This document shows, in pieces, positions 3-10,727 of a stretch of 15,323 nt of DNA (positions are counted from its first letter, which is position 1; each line of letters begins with the position of its first letter). This DNA is from an uncultured archaeon (GTDB taxonomy: Archaea; Asgardarchaeota; Lokiarchaeia; Sigyniarchaeales; SOKP01). A model generated the notes under the pieces. The model made no database searches. It had not been told where the DNA came from and saw nothing but the letters and a program-made list of their open reading frames with translations. Where the stretch lies: positions 1 through 15,323 of the forward strand of contig CAZBPC010000082.1 in assembly GCA_964493715.1 (NCBI GenBank), in the 5' to 3' direction. Made by a program: the position numbers and the translations under genes.

Positions 3-200
3 CAGAGCTTTTTTGATTTGAATGGAATGCAGTGGCAATTTAATGTTGTATCAACTGATACTTTAAAAGATGCAATGGTCAATCCAGTAAATTATAGATG
101 GTTATTAGTCAGAGTTTCGGGCTATAATGCATATTTTACAAAATTAAATAAAAATATGCAATTAGAAATAATTGAGCGACATGAATATCAACCAAAATAA
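3..200 (+). CDS. Glycyl radical enzyme (PFL-like family), C-terminal fragment; gene starts upstream of the window
   Basis: Frame is open from base 3 (QSFFDLNGMQWQFNVVS...). It carries the glycyl-radical domain pattern QFNVV...L.DA...P..Y..L.VRVSGY.AYF..L....Q.EII.R with the RVSGY radical glycine motif, and an activase follows directly. The substrate cannot be assigned because the Cys loop is outside the window. Confidence 0.95.
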   Translation, partial: QSFFDLNGMQWQFNVVSTDTLKDAMVNPVNYRWLLVRVSGYNAYFTKLNKNMQLEIIERHEYQPK

Positions 201-234: not shown

Positions 235-1134
235 ATGATAGATAAAACATTAGTAGTCGATATCAAAAGAAACGCATTAGATGATGGTCCGGGAATAAGA
301 ACCTTAATATTTTTTAAAGGATGTCCTCTTTCATGTGTGTGGTGTCAAAATCCCGAAGCAAAATCTCCTTCTTTAGAATTAATGTTTGATAAACAGATTT
401 GTTCGGAATGTGGGAATTGTATAGCATCTTGTGATCAAGAAGCTATTGATTTTGAGTATGAATTTCGCATTGATCGAAGTAAATGTACGTTATGTGGTAA
501 TTGTGTGAAAATCTGTCCAAATATGGCTTTGAAATTGATAGGTAAAGAATATACTATACATGATCTTGTGAAAACAATACTGAAGGATAAAGTGTTTTAT
601 GAAAACTCAGGTGGGGGGGTAACACTCTCAGGAGGAGAACCACTTTATCATATAAATTATATTAGTGAATTAGTAAAAGAACTCCAAAAAGAAGAAATTC
701 ATATATGTATAGAAACCAGTGGATATTACAATCGAGAAAAATTTTATGAATTGATTTTACCTTATATTGACCTTATTTATTTTGACTTGAAAATTTACGA
801 TTCTAAATTACACGCTAAATATTGTAAAGTATCAAACGAGAGAATATTAGAAAATTTTGAAGATATCCTTAAAAATAAATCAATAGAACTCTTACCCCGG
901 ATTCCTCTCATTCCGGGTATAACAGACACGAATGAAAACTTGTCAAATTTAGCTAATTATCTAAAATCCTTAAATTCGAAAAAAATAGGATTATTACCTT
1001 ATAATCCCCTCTGGCTTGCAAAACCAGAAAAAATAGGAATTAAAGCATCTTATAACTATTCTGAATGGTTAAATAATAAAAATAAGGAGAGAATTAAATC
1101 AATTTTCTCCGATTTTGAATTTAATGAGTTTTAA
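235..1134 (+). CDS. Glycyl-radical enzyme activating enzyme (radical SAM) with 2x[4Fe-4S] ferredoxin-like insert
   Basis: DGPGIRT..FFKGCPLSCVWCQNPE (CxxxCxxC); inserts CSECGNCIASC and CTLCGNCVKICP; GGGVTLSGGEP; ETSG; FDLK; RIPLIPG; LLPYN. Confidence 0.96.
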   Translation: MIDKTLVVDIKRNALDDGPGIRTLIFFKGCPLSCVWCQNPEAKSPSLELMFDKQICSECGNCIASCDQEAIDFEYEFRIDRSKCTLCGNCVKICPNMALKLIGKEYTIHDLVKTILKDKVFYENSGGGVTLSGGEPLYHINYISELVKELQKEEIHICIETSGYYNREKFYELILPYIDLIYFDLKIYDSKLHAKYCKVSNERILENFEDILKNKSIELLPRIPLIPGITDTNENLSNLANYLKSLNSKKIGLLPYNPLWLAKPEKIGIKASYNYSEWLNNKNKERIKSIFSDFEFNEF

Positions 1135-1177
1135 CAAAATAAATTAATTTTGTATCTATCACTAATTTTATTTCATT

Positions 1178-1269
1178 AATATAACATAAACATAACATTT
1201 AAATAGATAAATTTGTATAAATATAACATAAACATATCTTTTTATCTTAAAAATGATATACATATAACA
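1178..1269 (+). repeat. Phased direct repeats (AATATAACATAAACATA x2 plus partial third copy); putative operator array
   Basis: Exact 17-mer at 1178-1194 and 1220-1236. Core ATATAACA at 1179, 1221 and 1262 (spacing 42 and 41 bp). The repeat is seen directly; the regulatory role is inferred. Confidence 0.7.
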
Positions 1270-1295
1270 ATTAAATTTTAAACAAGTGATAATGT

Positions 1296-1859
1296 ATGAC
1301 TACTATTGCAGAAAAAATAATAAATGAATTAAAAACAAAAGCTTTAACTACTCTTCAATTAAGTGAAATAACAGAGATTGAAGAAGCTAAGATAAGGACT
1401 ACAATAAATAGATTAAAAGAAAAAGCCATAGTACAAGAGACGGGAATGTTTTTAGATAGATATAAAATATATAAACTTTCAGATAAATTGTTTAATGCAT
1501 CTTTCATACTGAGAATGATAAAGAAGCTTGATGGTGTAAAAGCTGTCATTCTTATAAGTAGTGTTGACGGTGCACCAATAAGTAGTATACTTCCAGAAGG
1601 ATTAAATGAATCTCGTTATGCTGCTATGACTATAGCCCTGTTTAGTTTGATGGAAAGAGCGTGTAAAGACATCAACAAAGGAAGATTTAAATTTTGTTAT
1701 ATTGAAGGAGAAGATGGAAAAATACTGCTAATTTCTTTCAATGAGGGATTAATTCTATCGATTTCATTTGATTCTACTGTAAATAATGACTTGATGTTTG
1801 CATCCTATATGAAAATCATTGATTTAATAGGAAGTTCTTTATCAGATCTAATTCAATAA
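1296..1859 (+). CDS. Winged helix-turn-helix + Roadblock/LC7 (MglB-like) fusion protein
   Basis: aa ~1-62 (KIINELKTKALTTLQLSEITEIEEAKIRTTINRLKEKAIVQETG...YKIYKL) fit the wHTH helix/wing pattern. aa ~70-187 (DGVKAVILISSVDGAPISS.LP......RYAAMT.ALFSLMER...DINKGRF....IEGEDGKILL......LIL) fit Roadblock/LC7. SD-like AAGTGA lies 6 nt before the ATG. Confidence 0.85.
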   Translation: MTTIAEKIINELKTKALTTLQLSEITEIEEAKIRTTINRLKEKAIVQETGMFLDRYKIYKLSDKLFNASFILRMIKKLDGVKAVILISSVDGAPISSILPEGLNESRYAAMTIALFSLMERACKDINKGRFKFCYIEGEDGKILLISFNEGLILSISFDSTVNNDLMFASYMKIIDLIGSSLSDLIQ

Positions 1860-1876
1860 TTTTTTTTTTCTTTTTT
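1860..1876 (+). terminator. Archaeal oligo-T terminator
   Basis: T10-C-T6 immediately after the stop codon of 1296..1859, in the gap before the convergent AOR gene. Confidence 0.6.
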
Positions 1877-1883
1877 AAGGACA

Positions 1884-3677
1884 TTATATCGGTATTCCTT
1901 GAGCATTCCAGCCTCTAATTTGATAATATTTTTTCAATAAACCTTCCAATGGAGGAATATTTTGCTTAGATCCACCTTTTCCGAGGGGTGTATAAAATCG
2001 CTTCCCAAAATTATCATCGACTTTGCTAATTCCACACTTTACATTAAAATCTCTTTTCATTCTTACAATTTTTTGTCCCGCTTTCATGAAATCTTCAACA
2101 GTATAAGATCTACCAGTGATTCCATTAAGACCATTTATCCAAGGTGTGAGTTTATGGATGAACCAGAATCCAAATATACACCCCCCACATGCTGAATATG
2201 CCTCACTGCCATCTTGAATTTTTACAACAGCTTCAGCAACATCATCTCCCGTTCCAAAGCGATCTACTTGTTCGGTTAAACCAATTTCTTCTTTTTGATT
2301 CATGTAGGAGGAAAGATGCATCGGTTCATAGCAATGATATGCTCCTCGGGGTGTTGTAGCGTAATCTAATGCCGTCATATTATTTGCTCGTGGTTCATGA
2401 GCTGGAATCTCAAGTCCTTTTCCGTGCATTGAAAGTTCTTCTGGTAATCCCTTTATTTCACAAAAAGATCTTACTCCTTCAGCTAATTCATCACCAATTC
2501 CTTCTCGATAAGCAATTTTTGTAAAAAGCTTTTCTATCGGCTCAACTTCGCCCCAAATGTTATCTTCAGTAAACTTAAATTCATTTACGTCAAAATCAAT
2601 CAGTTTTTTTTCTATAGATTCAAGAAAACATCCAATTACTGCTCCTAGACTGATTGAATCTAATCCTAAATCGTTTACTATTAGATTCCATTTAATTAAC
2701 ACTTCTAAGTCATCAACCATTAAATTAGATCCTAGCATTCCAAGAGTTTCATATTCTGGACGAGTTACCCATTTTCCTTGATACTCTAAGAAACCCCGGC
2801 AAGCTGTTGGGCAATTAAAACAACCATGCATTTTTACTTCTCCTCTGGCTTGCATTGCTTTTGCTCCAAGTTTTTTAATCCCTATCCATCTTCCTTCTGT
2901 ATAATTCTTGATAATTACATCTCCTACACTATACATAGAATCTATATGAATAGGGGTCCCCGAGTCAGCCATTACCATTCCTAATGCCGATTTTTTTAAT
3001 AATTCTCTAAGTTCTTTAGCCGCATCATTTACTTTATCTTTATCTTGAATGTGTACTTTACCCGTGCCCTGAATTGCAATCGCTTTTAAGTTCTTGCTAC
3101 CCATTACAGCTCCCATTCCACAACGTCCAGCAGCATGATGCTTATCATTGATAATACACGCATATTTAACCAAGTTTTCTCCCGCAGGTCCAATCGTAGC
3201 TATTTTTATTTTATCGTTTCCAAGTAGATCTTTTAATTTTTCGTCAGTTTCTTGAGTTCCTTTACCCCACAATTCAGAAGCGTCTTTTATTTCTGCTACT
3301 CCGTCATTTATCCATAGATATACTGGAGTTTTGCTTTTTCCCTTAATGATGACAAGATCAAATCCTGCTGATTTTAACTCCTTACCAAAGAACCCTCCTG
3401 AAGATGCTTCCCCGAGAATTTTTGTTAGCGGTGATTTTGCTGTAATAAAGTATCTACCACAGAAAGGAATAGCTGTACCGCAAAATGGACCCACTGAGAA
3501 GATCAAAAGATTATTCCCATTAAACGGATCAATTTCGGGATCCACTTCTCGAGTGAAGATGGCAGTTGCTAAACCCATTCCACCAATATATTTTGCTTCA
3601 TCTTTATTATGATAATATTCTTGGACAATTTTTTGTGTTCCTAAATCTATTCTTAAAATTTTTACGATTACTAACAC
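1884..3677 (-). CDS. aor: Aldehyde:ferredoxin oxidoreductase family (tungsto/molybdopterin, [4Fe-4S])
   Basis: KILRIDL, YIGGMGLA, KSPLT, GG.FG.ELK.AGFD, IGPAGEN, AAGRCGMGAVMGSKNLKAI, CFNCPTAC plus distal C in GGCIF, PEYET, DLGLDSIS, REGIGDELAEG, YY..RGW...G.P. The exact start is uncertain (GTG 3677 or ATC 3668). Confidence 0.95.
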   Translation of the reverse strand: MLVIVKILRIDLGTQKIVQEYYHNKDEAKYIGGMGLATAIFTREVDPEIDPFNGNNLLIFSVGPFCGTAIPFCGRYFITAKSPLTKILGEASSGGFFGKELKSAGFDLVIIKGKSKTPVYLWINDGVAEIKDASELWGKGTQETDEKLKDLLGNDKIKIATIGPAGENLVKYACIINDKHHAAGRCGMGAVMGSKNLKAIAIQGTGKVHIQDKDKVNDAAKELRELLKKSALGMVMADSGTPIHIDSMYSVGDVIIKNYTEGRWIGIKKLGAKAMQARGEVKMHGCFNCPTACRGFLEYQGKWVTRPEYETLGMLGSNLMVDDLEVLIKWNLIVNDLGLDSISLGAVIGCFLESIEKKLIDFDVNEFKFTEDNIWGEVEPIEKLFTKIAYREGIGDELAEGVRSFCEIKGLPEELSMHGKGLEIPAHEPRANNMTALDYATTPRGAYHCYEPMHLSSYMNQKEEIGLTEQVDRFGTGDDVAEAVVKIQDGSEAYSACGGCIFGFWFIHKLTPWINGLNGITGRSYTVEDFMKAGQKIVRMKRDFNVKCGISKVDDNFGKRFYTPLGKGGSKQNIPPLEGLLKKYYQIRGWNAQGIPI

Positions 3678-7732: not shown

Positions 7733-8059
7733 TTATTCTGGAGGTTTGAGCCCTAAAATATCCATTGCTTCAACAATTGAAGACATCGTTTCAACCTCAT
7801 ATTTGTAACCTTCGACTTGTTGTGCTACATAAATTAGGGATTTATGCAATTGGGCATTGTATTCTTTAAGTTTGCCTTCTTTAACTTCAGATGCGCTTAT
7901 TACCTTGTAACCTTCTTTGGTTGCAGAAACAGCATTATTTAGGAGCTGTTTAGAAAGCGATTTATCTCCTGGAAACTTTTTTGAAGTCTCAATAAAAATT
8001 TTCCCTGCTTCAGAGGCTTTAGCATGAGGAAACCATGCCGTAATCATAACTATTACCAT
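7733..8059 (-). CDS. Small hypothetical alpha/beta protein (ferredoxin-like / dimeric alpha-beta barrel pattern, inferred)
   Basis: 108-aa ORF with AGGTGA SD 5 nt before the ATG, an apparent beta-alpha-beta-beta-alpha-beta pattern, and a downstream minus-strand T-tract near 7705-7715. Confidence 0.8.
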   Translation of the reverse strand: MVIVMITAWFPHAKASEAGKIFIETSKKFPGDKSLSKQLLNNAVSATKEGYKVISASEVKEGKLKEYNAQLHKSLIYVAQQVEGYKYEVETMSSIVEAMDILGLKPPE

Positions 8060-8161: not shown

Positions 8162-9040
8162 CTAATCCTTTGCTGGTGAAGCATAACAATAATCACAATT
8201 ATGTTTACATCTAAAAATCCCCATATAACTTCCAATATCTCTTGACTTTGTACAACCACATTCTTTTCTCTGTCCTGTATCTTTAGCTTTTGAAATAGGT
8301 TCTCCAATGATTTTTTCTATTCTTTTTCCATCAATACAATGTGCTTGTTTTATCCCTTTAAAATCGAGTAAATCAGGTTGACAACAAGCCTTCATTAAAA
8401 TACCATTTTTATCGCATATCTGGATTAATTTTTCGAGAATTTCTTTTTTTTTTCTAAAATTAGGATCGATTGGAATATAGTTCCTTGCTCTCATCCTTTT
8501 TTCTACTTTAGAATACATCGTTGCGAAGGAAAAAATCATTTCCTTTAATCCAAGTGAAGAAACCCTTTCAATTATATATTCAAATTTGTCTAGATTATTC
8601 TTAATTTTATCTGAATTTTTTGACTTATAAATTATAATAGGATCATATCTATAGTTTACCGCTAAAGTGCCAAATTCCTCTACAAGCCATTTCAATTGAT
8701 GCAACCTGTCATCCAATGAGATTGTTACATTTTTTTCTAATTCTGATGGTGAATTAATCGTAAATTGAAAACAATGTCCCTTGTAAATATTAAAAATTTC
8801 AGGTTGATTCTGGTATAATTCAATCCAAATCTTAAAATTTTTTGACCACCACATCCAGCATTTGACATCTTCTGGTTTTAATGAGATTCTGGATACTTGA
8901 GAAGGATAAAATGGATTAGCAACATCCACATATCTACTTTTTATTTTTTCTATTACCCAATCCATCAAAAAAGCAGGAATATCAGTGCGACGAGAACATG
9001 AAATTATAGGAGATTTTACAATCGGTAGGGTTTTACTCAT
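8162..9040 (-). CDS. DUF1848 family protein (C-terminal radical-SAM-like Cys cluster)
   Basis: N-terminal IISCSRRTDIPAF, V.NPF, WSKN, QFTI, RYDPII, HCID, and C-terminal KD.GQR.ECGC..SRDIG.Y...CKHNCDYCYA. Confidence 0.92.
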   Translation of the reverse strand: MSKTLPIVKSPIISCSRRTDIPAFLMDWVIEKIKSRYVDVANPFYPSQVSRISLKPEDVKCWMWWSKNFKIWIELYQNQPEIFNIYKGHCFQFTINSPSELEKNVTISLDDRLHQLKWLVEEFGTLAVNYRYDPIIIYKSKNSDKIKNNLDKFEYIIERVSSLGLKEMIFSFATMYSKVEKRMRARNYIPIDPNFRKKKEILEKLIQICDKNGILMKACCQPDLLDFKGIKQAHCIDGKRIEKIIGEPISKAKDTGQRKECGCTKSRDIGSYMGIFRCKHNCDYCYASPAKD

Positions 9041-9134
9041 AATTTTTCATTAAATTCTTTTTTTAAATCCTTAATATTCTTCAATTCTAATAGGTTCTCA
9101 TTTAATTTACTAAATCTTTTCTTTCTTCCCTTAT

Positions 9135-10727
9135 TTATGAGATATAAATCTTCATTGCTTCAACAAAAAGATTTTTCTGATCAGCCAGCGTAAGATTCTG
9201 ATCGATTCTGTTTAAATCTTGCTCGTTTGAAATTAAATTTTTAAATCTATTTAGTTGTAATTCTCGAAAAATAGTTAAATGTGGATTAATAAAAGCTTTT
9301 TCTTGGTCTATTTCTTTTCTAAGGAGTTCTCTGAATTCTGGTTCAAGCCAGATCTTGAAAGGACCGGGACTGTGTTCTGCTTTATGTCTAATGTTGAATT
9401 GATTTTTTAAAGTATGTATAACTTCATAAACAGTTTCGCATATGGCTTGAATTTTATCTCTATTCTCTCTATAAAAATAATTTATTGGGACAGGGAGGCG
9501 AACGTGTAATAATAATCCCATTCCCTGCCTAAAATTAATATGACCGTAACCAAATATAATTTTTTGGAAACCATTTCTTTCAAAAATATTATTAATTGAT
9601 GATAAAATTTCTGGTAAGTTTTTAGGAGGACTTAAAACATCTTCAAATCCTGGAAATGCAATAAAGTCAGATGATTTATCAGAAGATTGAATTAATAGAG
9701 CAAATGTAGATCTTTCTTGTAGAAAATCATCAAATTCATTACCATTTAACCATTTATATGAACAATTTGTTAGATTTTCCATAACTTTAACAAATGATTC
9801 AACTTCCTCAAATGATCCTTGTATAAGAGTTGCCCATTTTATGGTATCACTTAAATTTGCAAATGCTCCTGGTAGTTTAAATGGAGAAATCACAAATTCA
9901 CTAACTAATGGGAAAACTTTTTTATCTAATACTTGTTGTAGCCCATTAAATGCTGAATCTAGATCGTCTCCGAAGATAATTGCTTGTTTAAGATTCGCTT
10001 CTGGTTGATATAATTTAAAAACGGCATTTAGTACAATACCAAAATAACCGTTTCCTCTAACTATCTTAGTAAAATAAGGATCTCCCTTGTTTATATTAAC
10101 TATTTTTCCTGTGGGGGTTAACACTCGAATACTTATTAACCAATTTGAAACTGAACCAAGCTTTCCAGAGGTTACACCACTTGCTTCGGTTGAAATAATC
10201 CCTCCAATCCGTACTGGTAATTTAAAAGAACTTGCAGGTTGTATTGGAAAAATATATTTGCCTTTACTAACATTAGGGATGATTTTAATTAAATCGGAAA
10301 CTAAAACACTTTGCTCCACATTGATTAATCCATTTTCCAAATCTACTTGAAATTTTTCCTTATTTGAATGAAGATCAGCAAGATCAACGATAATTCCAAA
10401 ATTAGCATAAGCTCCTGATAATCCTGTTTTACCCCCTGCAAAAGTTATTGGAATCTCATATTTTCTTGAGACATTTACAATATGACATAACTGATATTCA
10501 GTTATTGGTCGAAATATGATGTAAGGATTTATATGTAGTAAAGATGTATCTCTAATAGCACCTCCTTCGATTACATTATTAACCAACATAATATTTCCAG
10601 AATTAAGTGATTTTTGTTGATTATTTAATTTACGCTTCAAGAAACCGAGCTTTTCCATTTCATCAATAAAGTCAATCCAATGAATTTTCTTACTTAGTTT
10701 TAAAATCAACTCGCCACGATTCATCAT
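9135..10727 (-). CDS. FAD-binding oxidoreductase, VAO/GlcD/D-lactate dehydrogenase-like, divergent
   Basis: P..IFRP, GGKTGLSG, FPIQPAS, IGG.IST.ASG....K.G, V.TPTG.I, G.FGIV, EDV..P, FGYGH, C-terminal AEH. Start set to ATG 10727 because TTG 10766 lies among the promoter-like elements. Confidence 0.82.
   Translation of the reverse strand: MMNRGELILKLSKKIHWIDFIDEMEKLGFLKRKLNNQQKSLNSGNIMLVNNVIEGGAIRDTSLLHINPYIIFRPITEYQLCHIVNVSRKYEIPITFAGGKTGLSGAYANFGIIVDLADLHSNKEKFQVDLENGLINVEQSVLVSDLIKIIPNVSKGKYIFPIQPASSFKLPVRIGGIISTEASGVTSGKLGSVSNWLISIRVLTPTGKIVNINKGDPYFTKIVRGNGYFGIVLNAVFKLYQPEANLKQAIIFGDDLDSAFNGLQQVLDKKVFPLVSEFVISPFKLPGAFANLSDTIKWATLIQGSFEEVESFVKVMENLTNCSYKWLNGNEFDDFLQERSTFALLIQSSDKSSDFIAFPGFEDVLSPPKNLPEILSSINNIFERNGFQKIIFGYGHINFRQGMGLLLHVRLPVPINYFYRENRDKIQAICETVYEVIHTLKNQFNIRHKAEHSPGPFKIWLEPEFRELLRKEIDQEKAFINPHLTIFRELQLNRFKNLISNEQDLNRIDQNLTLADQKNLFVEAMKIYIS

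Follow-up and report, generated by a model that had tools for sequence, protein, structure and literature searches.

A Winged Helix–Roadblock/LC7 Fusion Protein of Narrow Range in Lokiarchaeia, with a Candidate Operator in Its Own Promoter

The Locus

Contig CAZBPC010000082.1 (C82; assembly GCA_964493715.1) comes from an uncultured archaeon (Asgardarchaeota; Lokiarchaeia; Sigyniarchaeales; SOKP01), and the whole stretch of it analyzed here, termed the window, is 15,323 nt long. In the window lies a gene for a protein of 187 amino acids (aa), in which an N-terminal winged helix-turn-helix (wHTH) is followed by a Roadblock/LC7 domain (Table 1). Sequence comparison and structural modeling confirm that the gene is a real fusion of a winged helix with a complete Roadblock/LC7 domain. 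It is an uncharacterized architecture of narrow range, and it is accompanied by a candidate operator.

The reading frame starts with ATG and ends with TAA. It is flanked by a gene for a glycyl-radical-enzyme activase (235–1134, + strand) and by a convergent gene for an aldehyde:ferredoxin oxidoreductase (AOR; 1884–3677, − strand). The original prediction, which was made from the sequence alone, had described a stand-alone gene with its own Shine-Dalgarno site and T-tract, and both can be found in the sequence. The Shine-Dalgarno-like site is weak in the window and reads GGTGAT in most of 8 aligned orthologues.

Table 1. Features of the wHTH–Roadblock gene and its promoter (positions in the window)
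Feature	Position	Strand	Remarks
wHTH–Roadblock coding sequence, stop included	1296–1859	+	From the list of open reading frames; full-length orthologues, 46–87% identity
N-terminal winged helix-turn-helix, aa 1–62	1296–1481	+	Recognition helix about aa 30–42, wing aa 46–61
Roadblock/LC7 domain, aa 63–187, with both terminal helices	1482–1856	+	Pfam, PDB matches, model
Two ATAACA boxes	1181–1186, 1192–1197	+	Direct repeat 11 bp apart; the second abuts the TATA-like box; ATAAC core of each unchanged in 9 of 9 aligned promoters
TTTAAATA, candidate archaeal TATA box	1198–1205	+	Invariant in 9 of 9 orthologous promoters
Third ATAACA box	1223–1228	+	Some 20 bp 3′ of the TATA-like box, in the presumed start region
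Fourth ATAACA box, within TATAACAATTA	1264–1269	+	Presumed leader; in a block of 11 bases that is the same in 9 of 9 promoters
Shine-Dalgarno-like GTGAT, weak	1286–1290	+	5 nt ahead of the ATG
T10-C-T6 tract, candidate archaeal oligo-T terminator	1860–1876	+	Immediately 3′ of the stop

Domains and Predicted Structure

The Roadblock half can be identified by sequence. Its Pfam match to Robl_LC7 (PF03259) covers aa 72–156 (E 3.2e-13; 49.7 bits, cut-off 23), and the same model is matched in 12 of 12 family members. In the PDB, the Roadblock sequence finds 7f8m_A (E 7e-13), and Foldseek finds 7f8m_B (E 1.1e-9). Among the matches listed for the whole model, Foldseek gave Roadblock domains only; the winged helix was recovered by VIA-align, a structure comparison against 48,161 chains in which the wHTH and Roadblock parts were matched separately.

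The structural model was built with AlphaFold2 on a 72-row alignment (A4) and has a mean predicted local distance difference test (pLDDT) score of 88.6. A model built from the single sequence was unusable (mean pLDDT 38.2). The wHTH is modeled as a helix (aa 4–12), a short strand, two further helices (19–26 and 30–42), and a hairpin (46–53 and 56–61). The Roadblock half is modeled as an alpha-beta-beta-alpha-beta-beta-beta-alpha sandwich with N- and C-terminal helices (helix 63–76, strands 81–88 and 94–98, helix 105–125, strands 133–138, 141–148, and 152–158, and helix 164–186). The linker between the two is at most 1–2 residues in length. No helix belonging to the wHTH follows the wing, and the chain runs straight into Roadblock helix 63–76. 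Canonical ArsR/SmtB metal sensors dimerize via helices that flank the wHTH (alpha1/alpha5), a family feature that is absent from the present model.

Both halves have close structural relatives. In VIA-align, aa 63–187 best match the Lokiarchaeal Roadblock3 9jue_D (Z 19.1, root-mean-square deviation (rmsd) 1.4, 118 residues), and other matches include 7yh1_D (Z 17.9), Thor-RB 7f8m_A (Z 17.8), and MglB 6hjm_A (Z 17.7). The N-terminal aa 1–66 match PH1932 (2cwe_A) with Z 11.8 and rmsd 1.9 over 64 residues at 28% identity, which agrees with the original prediction that the N-terminus would model as a wHTH. They also match DNA-bound NolR (Z 10.4) as well as CzrA, Rv1404, and MJ223 (Z 10.1–10.4); with Mb0332 included, these matches have Z 10.1–10.7 and rmsd 1.8–2.2 over 61–64 residues.

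A profile of the family N-terminus (A3, made from 13 N-termini) was searched against the PDB and gave a similar set of relatives: PH1932 (1uly_A, E 4.3e-7), the Lrp/AsnC-type PF0864 (1.3e-4), XylR (3.5e-3), and MarR (3.8e-3). The Pfam family HTH_5 is reached by 3 of 12 family members and TrmB by 2 of 12 (E ≤ 1e-3). An orthologue in genome G209 exceeds the cut-offs for HTH_5 (29.3 versus 22), TrmB (29.1 versus 25.6), and HTH_24 (24.7 versus 21.9), and the relative P0025 exceeds that for HTH_5 (26.8 bits versus 22). In NCBIfam, the window protein has just two matches, both sub-threshold. Taken with the Pfam score of the Roadblock half and the model, the PH1932 match bears out the originally predicted wHTH of about 60 aa, joined almost without a linker to a full Roadblock domain.

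Conservation is unevenly distributed over the protein. In a 12-row alignment (A1), the recognition helix is invariant at I33, R34, T35, T36, I37, R39, L40, and K41, and the wing at Y56, K57, I58, and Y59. Compared with 11 relatives, the N-domain is 58–90% identical and the Roadblock part 39–85%, with the N-domain higher in every pair. The isoelectric point (pI) of the N-domain is 9.0 in the window protein and 9.0–10.2 in 11 of 12 members, while that of the Roadblock part is 4.5–6.8 in 11 of 12. By its profiles and its modeled fold, the winged helix is ArsR/MarR/TrmB-like, and it is the basic and better-conserved half of the protein.

Conservation and Distribution of the Fusion

Twelve further genomes of the genus carry the frame from end to end; in the same genus, another copy is truncated by the end of its contig, and one survives as a remnant. 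The remnant (one species, genome G030; L030:1498–1683, − strand) retains the last 61 codons (aa 127–187) at 84% identity, with many stops before them. The wHTH–Roadblock gene is absent from several congeneric genomes with a completeness of 99–100%. Given these complete congeners and the remnant, the gene is accessory and in the course of being lost in places.

The range of the family is narrow on every scale searched. A word-indexed search of 5.8 billion proteins found 16 relatives with 47–86% identity, and 12 are full-length (186–190 aa, the window protein counted). An exhaustive search of 1.84 billion cluster representatives gave 487 matches, nearly all of them Roadblock-only, and the single match below E 1e-30 is full-length. 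A pattern scan of 185,579 species genomes found 15 loci, all with an intact fusion; they are titled as metagenome-assembled genomes of Promethearchaeota/Promethearchaeia except for one titled ‘uncultured archaeon’. In metagenomes, the winged-helix frame is open in 19 of the 19 loci with sufficient upstream sequence; a 20th is cut by a contig end. Across the phylum, strong matches occur in 17 of 398 genomes, all within the family of the window's archaeon and distributed over its genera as 14 of 41, 2 of 53, and 1 of 10 (counting the genome of the window). Ten public DNA sequencing runs contain at least half of the sampled words of window positions 1100–1900, and five of these may be the source sample; one RNA run contains a share of 0.10 of the sampled words of the window region.

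When the N-terminal profile was searched against longer proteins, 31 of 33 matches (171–267 aa) also carried PF03259. Therefore, this winged-helix subfamily lives almost only in the Roadblock fusion. A few stand-alone wHTH relatives of 82–118 aa have the wing signature RYKIYKL too.

Some database entries of 136 aa (P0008, P0009, P0010, and P0013) begin at Met51. At three loci (L045, at 3001–3003; L067; L075), ATT replaces the ATG start, and the whole N-terminal frame is intact and conserved. Because ATT stands at the usual position of ATG in an intact frame, the 136-aa forms can be explained as gene-caller truncations. Split or truncated 136-aa genes were rejected, as L067 (identical to P0010), L075 (2,640 bases, the length recorded for P0008), and L045 are all intact. 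In this sub-lineage of the family, ATT may be a genuine non-canonical, weak start.

The same entries bear on whether the fusion could be an assembly chimera or a mis-called pair of genes, for which the likelihood is negligible. The forms beginning at Met51, together with N-terminal fragments of 31–87 aa, do at first look like split genes. However, the short fragments sit on contigs of 601–1789 bases, with one exception on a 10,311-base contig, and every one of the genome loci and testable metagenome loci counted above carries the intact fusion. The chimera reading is thus refuted as far as sequence allows, and the fusion is present in related genomes, on which the original prediction had depended.

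Homodimer Prediction

Two copies of the protein were folded together alongside controls, and the pair reached an interaction score (ipSAE) of 0.59 versus 0.10 for the best control. In the calibration of this score, 20 of 30 proteins whose structure had been solved as a pair passed the mark, compared with 1 of 23 whose structure had been solved as a single chain. At least 98% of the contacts agree between runs, and the partner has a pLDDT of 80 or more.

The predicted interface (aa 83, 103–143, 157, 164, and 168) consists of Roadblock residues only, with zero winged-helix residues. Strand 133–138 pairs with itself across the predicted dimer, the nearest contacts being 135 with 135 and 133–138 with 129–138. 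This region, the central helix and the edge strand that follows it, is the canonical one for Roadblock domains, and it coincides with the dimer region described in PMC10933270. Because Roadblock homodimers have already been solved (7f8m, 9jue), the score may reflect mere likeness to them. The prediction supports, and does not by itself demonstrate, a homodimer formed via the Roadblock domain, in line with the dimerization role that the original prediction had given to this domain.

Promoter Boxes and Candidate Operator

Four copies of the hexamer ATAACA (at 1181, 1192, 1223, and 1264) fall within 89 bp upstream of the gene. They are arranged around TTTAAATA, a candidate TATA box by the archaeal TATA consensus. 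Over the genome, ATAACA occurs 0.94 times per kb on both strands, and at least 4 copies per 100 nt are found at just 3 places in 3.68 Mb.

The boxes are conserved along with the gene. Of the close orthologous promoters, 9 of 9 keep the ATAAC cores and TTTAAATA unchanged, among them 4 with a different upstream gene, and 2–5 copies of ATAACA occur in the 200 nt upstream at all 15 genome loci. A distant orthologue with 50% protein identity (L046) repeats the arrangement ATAACA-N5-ATAACA-TTTAAATA. In another clade of about 50% identity, the sequence TGTTAT-N4-ATAACA is found in 5 of 5 loci. Its half-sites do not vary but its spacer does (gtac, atac, gctc), and the operator of a symmetric dimer would usually look like this. 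It is likely, from this pattern, that the ATAACA boxes form an autoregulatory operator that overlaps the core promoter.

Other roles for these sequences were considered. ATAACA as a general promoter element or B recognition element was rejected, as it stands directly upstream of only 4 of 2333 TATA-like sites. A leader RNA or riboswitch in 1160–1300 was also rejected (z +1.58; 195 of 200 shuffles fold at least as well), and the window has no match to an Rfam family. Over the whole genome, the hexamers occur as 8 inward and 10 outward inverted pairs and at 5 sites with ATAACA plus a TATA-like box. A gene at G000:C39:23850 (+ strand; G000 being the genome of the window) for a histone-fold-like protein of 84 aa, whose N-terminal tail is rich in Lys and Ala, lies behind ATAACA-TTTATATA, a single half-site at chance level.

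Proposed Function

Leaving its input signal aside, the protein is fairly probably a lineage-specific, dimeric DNA-binding regulator, and one that is probably autoregulated. The original prediction of a transcription-factor role is made likely by the basic, conserved wHTH, its regulator-like relatives, and the operator-like boxes. We infer DNA binding, an operator function of the boxes, and repression, and the mechanism would be as follows. The basic ArsR/MarR/TrmB-like winged helix (aa 1–62) would be fused rigidly to the first helix of the Roadblock domain (aa 63–187). As in the solved homodimers, pairing of the Roadblock domains would involve the central helix and the edge strand, and it would hold two winged helices in place to read paired ATAACA half-sites. 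A dimer on the boxes would block TBP/TFB or RNA polymerase, giving negative autoregulation, and would also control a further regulon. Negative autoregulation is the most likely activity because the boxes lie around and across both the TATA box of the gene itself and its presumed start site. The Roadblock domain would be at least the dimerization module and probably the input module too, and candidate inputs are a small ligand or a protein partner, either a small GTPase or a further Roadblock or longin protein.

Several observations weigh against this account. The Pfam matches of the wHTH of the window protein are all below threshold (TrmB with 15.4 bits versus a cut-off of 25.6, Phage_rep_O, ScpB, and PH0730-like_N). 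The boxes in the clade of the window are direct repeats, although a symmetric dimer with nearly no linker would prefer an inverted repeat, and the inverted repeat is found in the distant clade alone. The invariance of the close promoters is not independent evidence, since they share descent; about three clades count. Clusters of at least three ATAACA/TGTTAT hexamers in 100 nt number 19 genome-wide, about what the hexamer density predicts, and 4 of the 19 are non-coding, including the gene's own promoter; the 3 others show no obvious connection to it. The genome-wide hexamer scan gave no convincing second target for the regulator. Moreover, winged helices beside GTPase-platform domains can bind protein, as in Npr2/Npr3 according to the available part of PMC3521125.

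The 3.68-Mb genome of the archaeon has 84 Ras-family matches and 16 Roadblock matches, of which the window protein alone has a winged helix. As the original prediction had stated, the window encodes no GTPase: none was found among the 13 open reading frames (ORFs) scanned, and 0 of the 84 Ras-family matches are on C82. Among the 15 genome loci, a Rag/Arf-like GTPase gene adjoins the orthologue in one (G209), where the orthologue lies 180 nt downstream of a gene for a 299-aa GTPase (Arf, Ras, and Gtr1_RagA matches). The G209 cluster (L065:5094–9952, − strand) comprises the GTPase gene (9056–9952), the orthologue, small ORFs, a Roadblock gene, and a gene for a 591-aa Ras/Roc protein; the last has a winged-helix match (MarR, HTH_IclR, HTH_5) at aa 380–423 and is possibly Roc-COR-like. 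In G000, C97:4641–6275 (− strand; L066) encodes an N-terminal Roadblock joined to a Ras-family GTPase in a 551-aa frame (545 aa from the first start codon).

Three alternatives concern what the two domains bind. In one, a narrower form of the main account, the protein is a GTPase-coupled transcription factor whose Roadblock dimer docks an MglA-, Rag-, or Arf-like GTPase in a nucleotide-dependent manner, or exchanges subunits with paralogues, and thereby switches DNA binding. According to the accessible portion of PMC10933270, dimers of Roadblock/longin domains serve as platforms, and small GTPases often bind to them directly. The Roadblock part is 32–33% identical to the stand-alone Thor-RB 7f8m; in structure it resembles MglB (Z 17.7) and, at Z 11.8–12.0, the Roadblock domains found in two Lokiarchaeal Rag-like GTPases (8yl2_A and 9m28_A). 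The genome is rich in such parts, including the Roadblock–Ras fusion on C97, and in G209 the orthologue lies between the GTPase gene and another Roadblock gene with the Ras/Roc gene. However, one GTPase neighbor in 15 loci is near chance on a rough estimate, because GTPase genes are so common, the window has none, and the nearest stand-alone paralogue (C27) also lacks a GTPase neighbor. The lack of a neighbor is itself weak evidence against a link, since in strain MK-D1 GTPase genes generally lie outside operons with Roadblock genes, according to the same portion of PMC10933270. The case for a GTPase link consists of family membership and one locus of 15, and nothing further was found for the original suggestion that GTPase state could control DNA binding. 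The GTPase-coupled factor is an unlikely account overall, and it is likewise unlikely that a Rag-, Arf-, or MglA-like switch has its GTP/GDP state read directly as promoter occupancy, through the Roadblock dimer as a platform or through subunit exchange.

The winged helix may instead be a protein-protein module, in which case the protein would act as an adaptor, recruiting a partner to a Roadblock/GTPase platform in the manner of the winged helices of Npr2/Npr3, ESCRT-II, or the COR domain. Longin domains, which are related to Roadblock, are fused to winged helices in Npr2/Npr3 (PMC3521125, available part), and the G209 Ras/Roc protein with its winged-helix match is encoded nearby. In addition, there are weak profile matches to ribosomal protein eS25 (E 0.011–0.5), and Z-alpha domains are matched at Z 10.4–11.0, so that B-DNA binding does not follow from the fold by itself. 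This adaptor role is nevertheless distinctly unlikely: in sequence, the domain is closest to DNA-binding regulators of prokaryotes (PH1932, Lrp/AsnC, XylR, MarR), it is basic with invariant Arg/Thr/Lys in the recognition helix and Arg/Tyr/Lys in the wing, and the gene's own promoter has conserved repeated and palindromic boxes. Quite improbable, finally, is a ligand-sensing one-component regulator without a GTPase, in which the profilin/PAS/GAF-like Roadblock fold would serve as a small-molecule pocket as in IclR and CodY. GAF domains are indeed matched (3eea_B, Z 12.1; 2qyb_A, Z 10.6; CodY 5n0l_A, Z 10.6; DosS GAF-A 4ynr_A, Z 10.2), the whole model (aa 1–187) matches the IclR-type TtgV 2xrn_A at Z 10.4, and close orthologues often lie between metabolic genes, as local metabolic regulators do. 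Yet the TtgV match has an rmsd of 12.7, so the domain arrangement differs, the Roadblock matches (Z 14–19) are far above the GAF matches, and the neighborhood is not conserved. No Roadblock domain is known to us to bind a ligand, although no search aimed at this was made.

Asgard archaea have dozens of Roadblock and small-GTPase genes, and their pairings and outputs are largely unknown because the genes are seldom in operons, as described in the part of PMC10933270 that was available. Among them, a Roadblock domain joined to a DNA-binding domain is rare in having an output that can be read, and it could serve as bait for Roadblock binders. If its input is a GTPase, the protein would be a direct link from GTPase to transcription in archaea, a one-protein bridge and a handle for matching GTPases with Roadblocks. 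If not, the Roadblock fold would have been reused as a plain dimerization or sensor module, like the GAF-like domains in IclR and CodY. The narrow and patchy range, 17 of 398 genomes and one family, limits the general importance of either.

Comparison with Known Systems

Stand-alone Asgard Roadblock homodimers (Thor-RB 7f8m; 7yh1 of MK-D1; Roadblock3 9jue) and bacterial MglB share the fold, both terminal helices included, with the C-terminal half (Z 17.7–19.1, rmsd 1.4–2.4, 116–124 residues). Unlike the wHTH–Roadblock protein, they have no DNA-binding domain. MglB also has a cognate GTPase, MglA, whereas no partner is encoded near the wHTH–Roadblock gene, which thus lacks adjacency of the MglB type. 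The closest solved relative of the wHTH is PH1932 of Pyrococcus horikoshii (1uly/2cwe), an ArsR-type protein of 192 aa that is similar in size and also has its wHTH at the N-terminus. Its first 84 or so residues align, while its C-terminal part was not matched to Roadblock in the searches made.

In architecture, the closest kinds are one-component regulators such as TtgV of the IclR family and CodY, which likewise combine a wHTH with a dimerizing, sensing alpha/beta sandwich of the profilin/PAS/GAF type (Z about 10–12). They differ in that the TtgV arrangement superposes with an rmsd of 12.7 and in that the sensor here is a true Roadblock, of a family known for protein partners rather than small ligands. 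The window protein has no IclR or GAF match in Pfam (IclR tested to E ≤ 10), and it is therefore not a member of those families. In Npr2/Npr3 of GATOR1, a longin GTPase-platform domain and winged helices are likewise found in one chain, according to the available text of PMC3521125. However, these proteins are eukaryotic and much larger, have the reverse order with three C-terminal winged helices of another type, and are not shown to bind DNA, and the resemblance is probably convergent.

Prokaryotic small-GTPase modules can also be linked to predicted DNA-binding or signaling partners. As described in the accessible part of PMC4316618, group 3 MglA is co-encoded with a REC and wHTH-like protein, and the actinobacterial conservon (CvnA-D) includes the Roadblock protein CvnB9 and the GTPase CvnD9. 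These systems consist of separate proteins encoded in operons, whereas the protein described here has Roadblock and wHTH in one chain and no linked GTPase.

The novelty suspected in the original prediction holds in part. Full-text searches of the literature found no paper that describes the wHTH–Roadblock protein. The family is nonetheless already present in databases. Public records are automatically named ‘roadblock/LC7 domain-containing protein’, and a single record at JGI bears the name ‘predicted regulator of Ras-like GTPase activity (Roadblock/LC7/MglB family)/DNA-binding MarR fam...’. In the ESM Atlas, a cluster of 53 members has Robl_LC7 in 96% and HTH_24 in 62%. Other public Roadblock fusions (P0023, P0026, P0085, P0019, P0022, P0082) include TIR-Roadblock, CDC48_N-Roadblock, and a double Roadblock with a C-terminal zinc ribbon.

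Neighboring Genes

The genes around the fusion vary between loci. A glycyl-radical-enzyme activase gene is upstream in 6 of 13 loci, and an AOR gene adjoins the orthologue in 7 of 13. Four genomes have different genes on one side or both (G002 and G016, and G014 and G015, the last two on both sides), and the distant clade adjoins Elp3-like and PyrK/PyrD genes. Conserved functional synteny with the glycyl-radical enzyme or AOR was rejected on account of these changes. A defense or phage context was rejected as well: PADLOC gave just AbiEi (E 0.0081) with nothing passing, and PHROGs gave weak wHTH-type matches with E of at least 0.001.

Further along the window, a DUF1848 protein is encoded at 8162–9040 (− strand). 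It matches the PADLOC model RTasDUF1848 (DRT-associated) with E 4.8e-43, and no reverse transcriptase was seen among the scanned ORFs of the window. A conserved 108-aa protein without a Pfam family is encoded at 7733–8059 (− strand) and also at L022:2112–2435 and L030:1059–1448. In G014 and G015, its gene is directly 3′ of the wHTH–Roadblock gene because the block from AOR to a membrane protein is absent there. At the other end of the window, a gene truncated where the contig begins encodes the C-terminus of a glycyl-radical enzyme at 3–200 (+ strand; Gly_radical, with the motif RVSGYNAYF), and the activase that follows it is of the radical-SAM type with extra 4Fe-4S domains.

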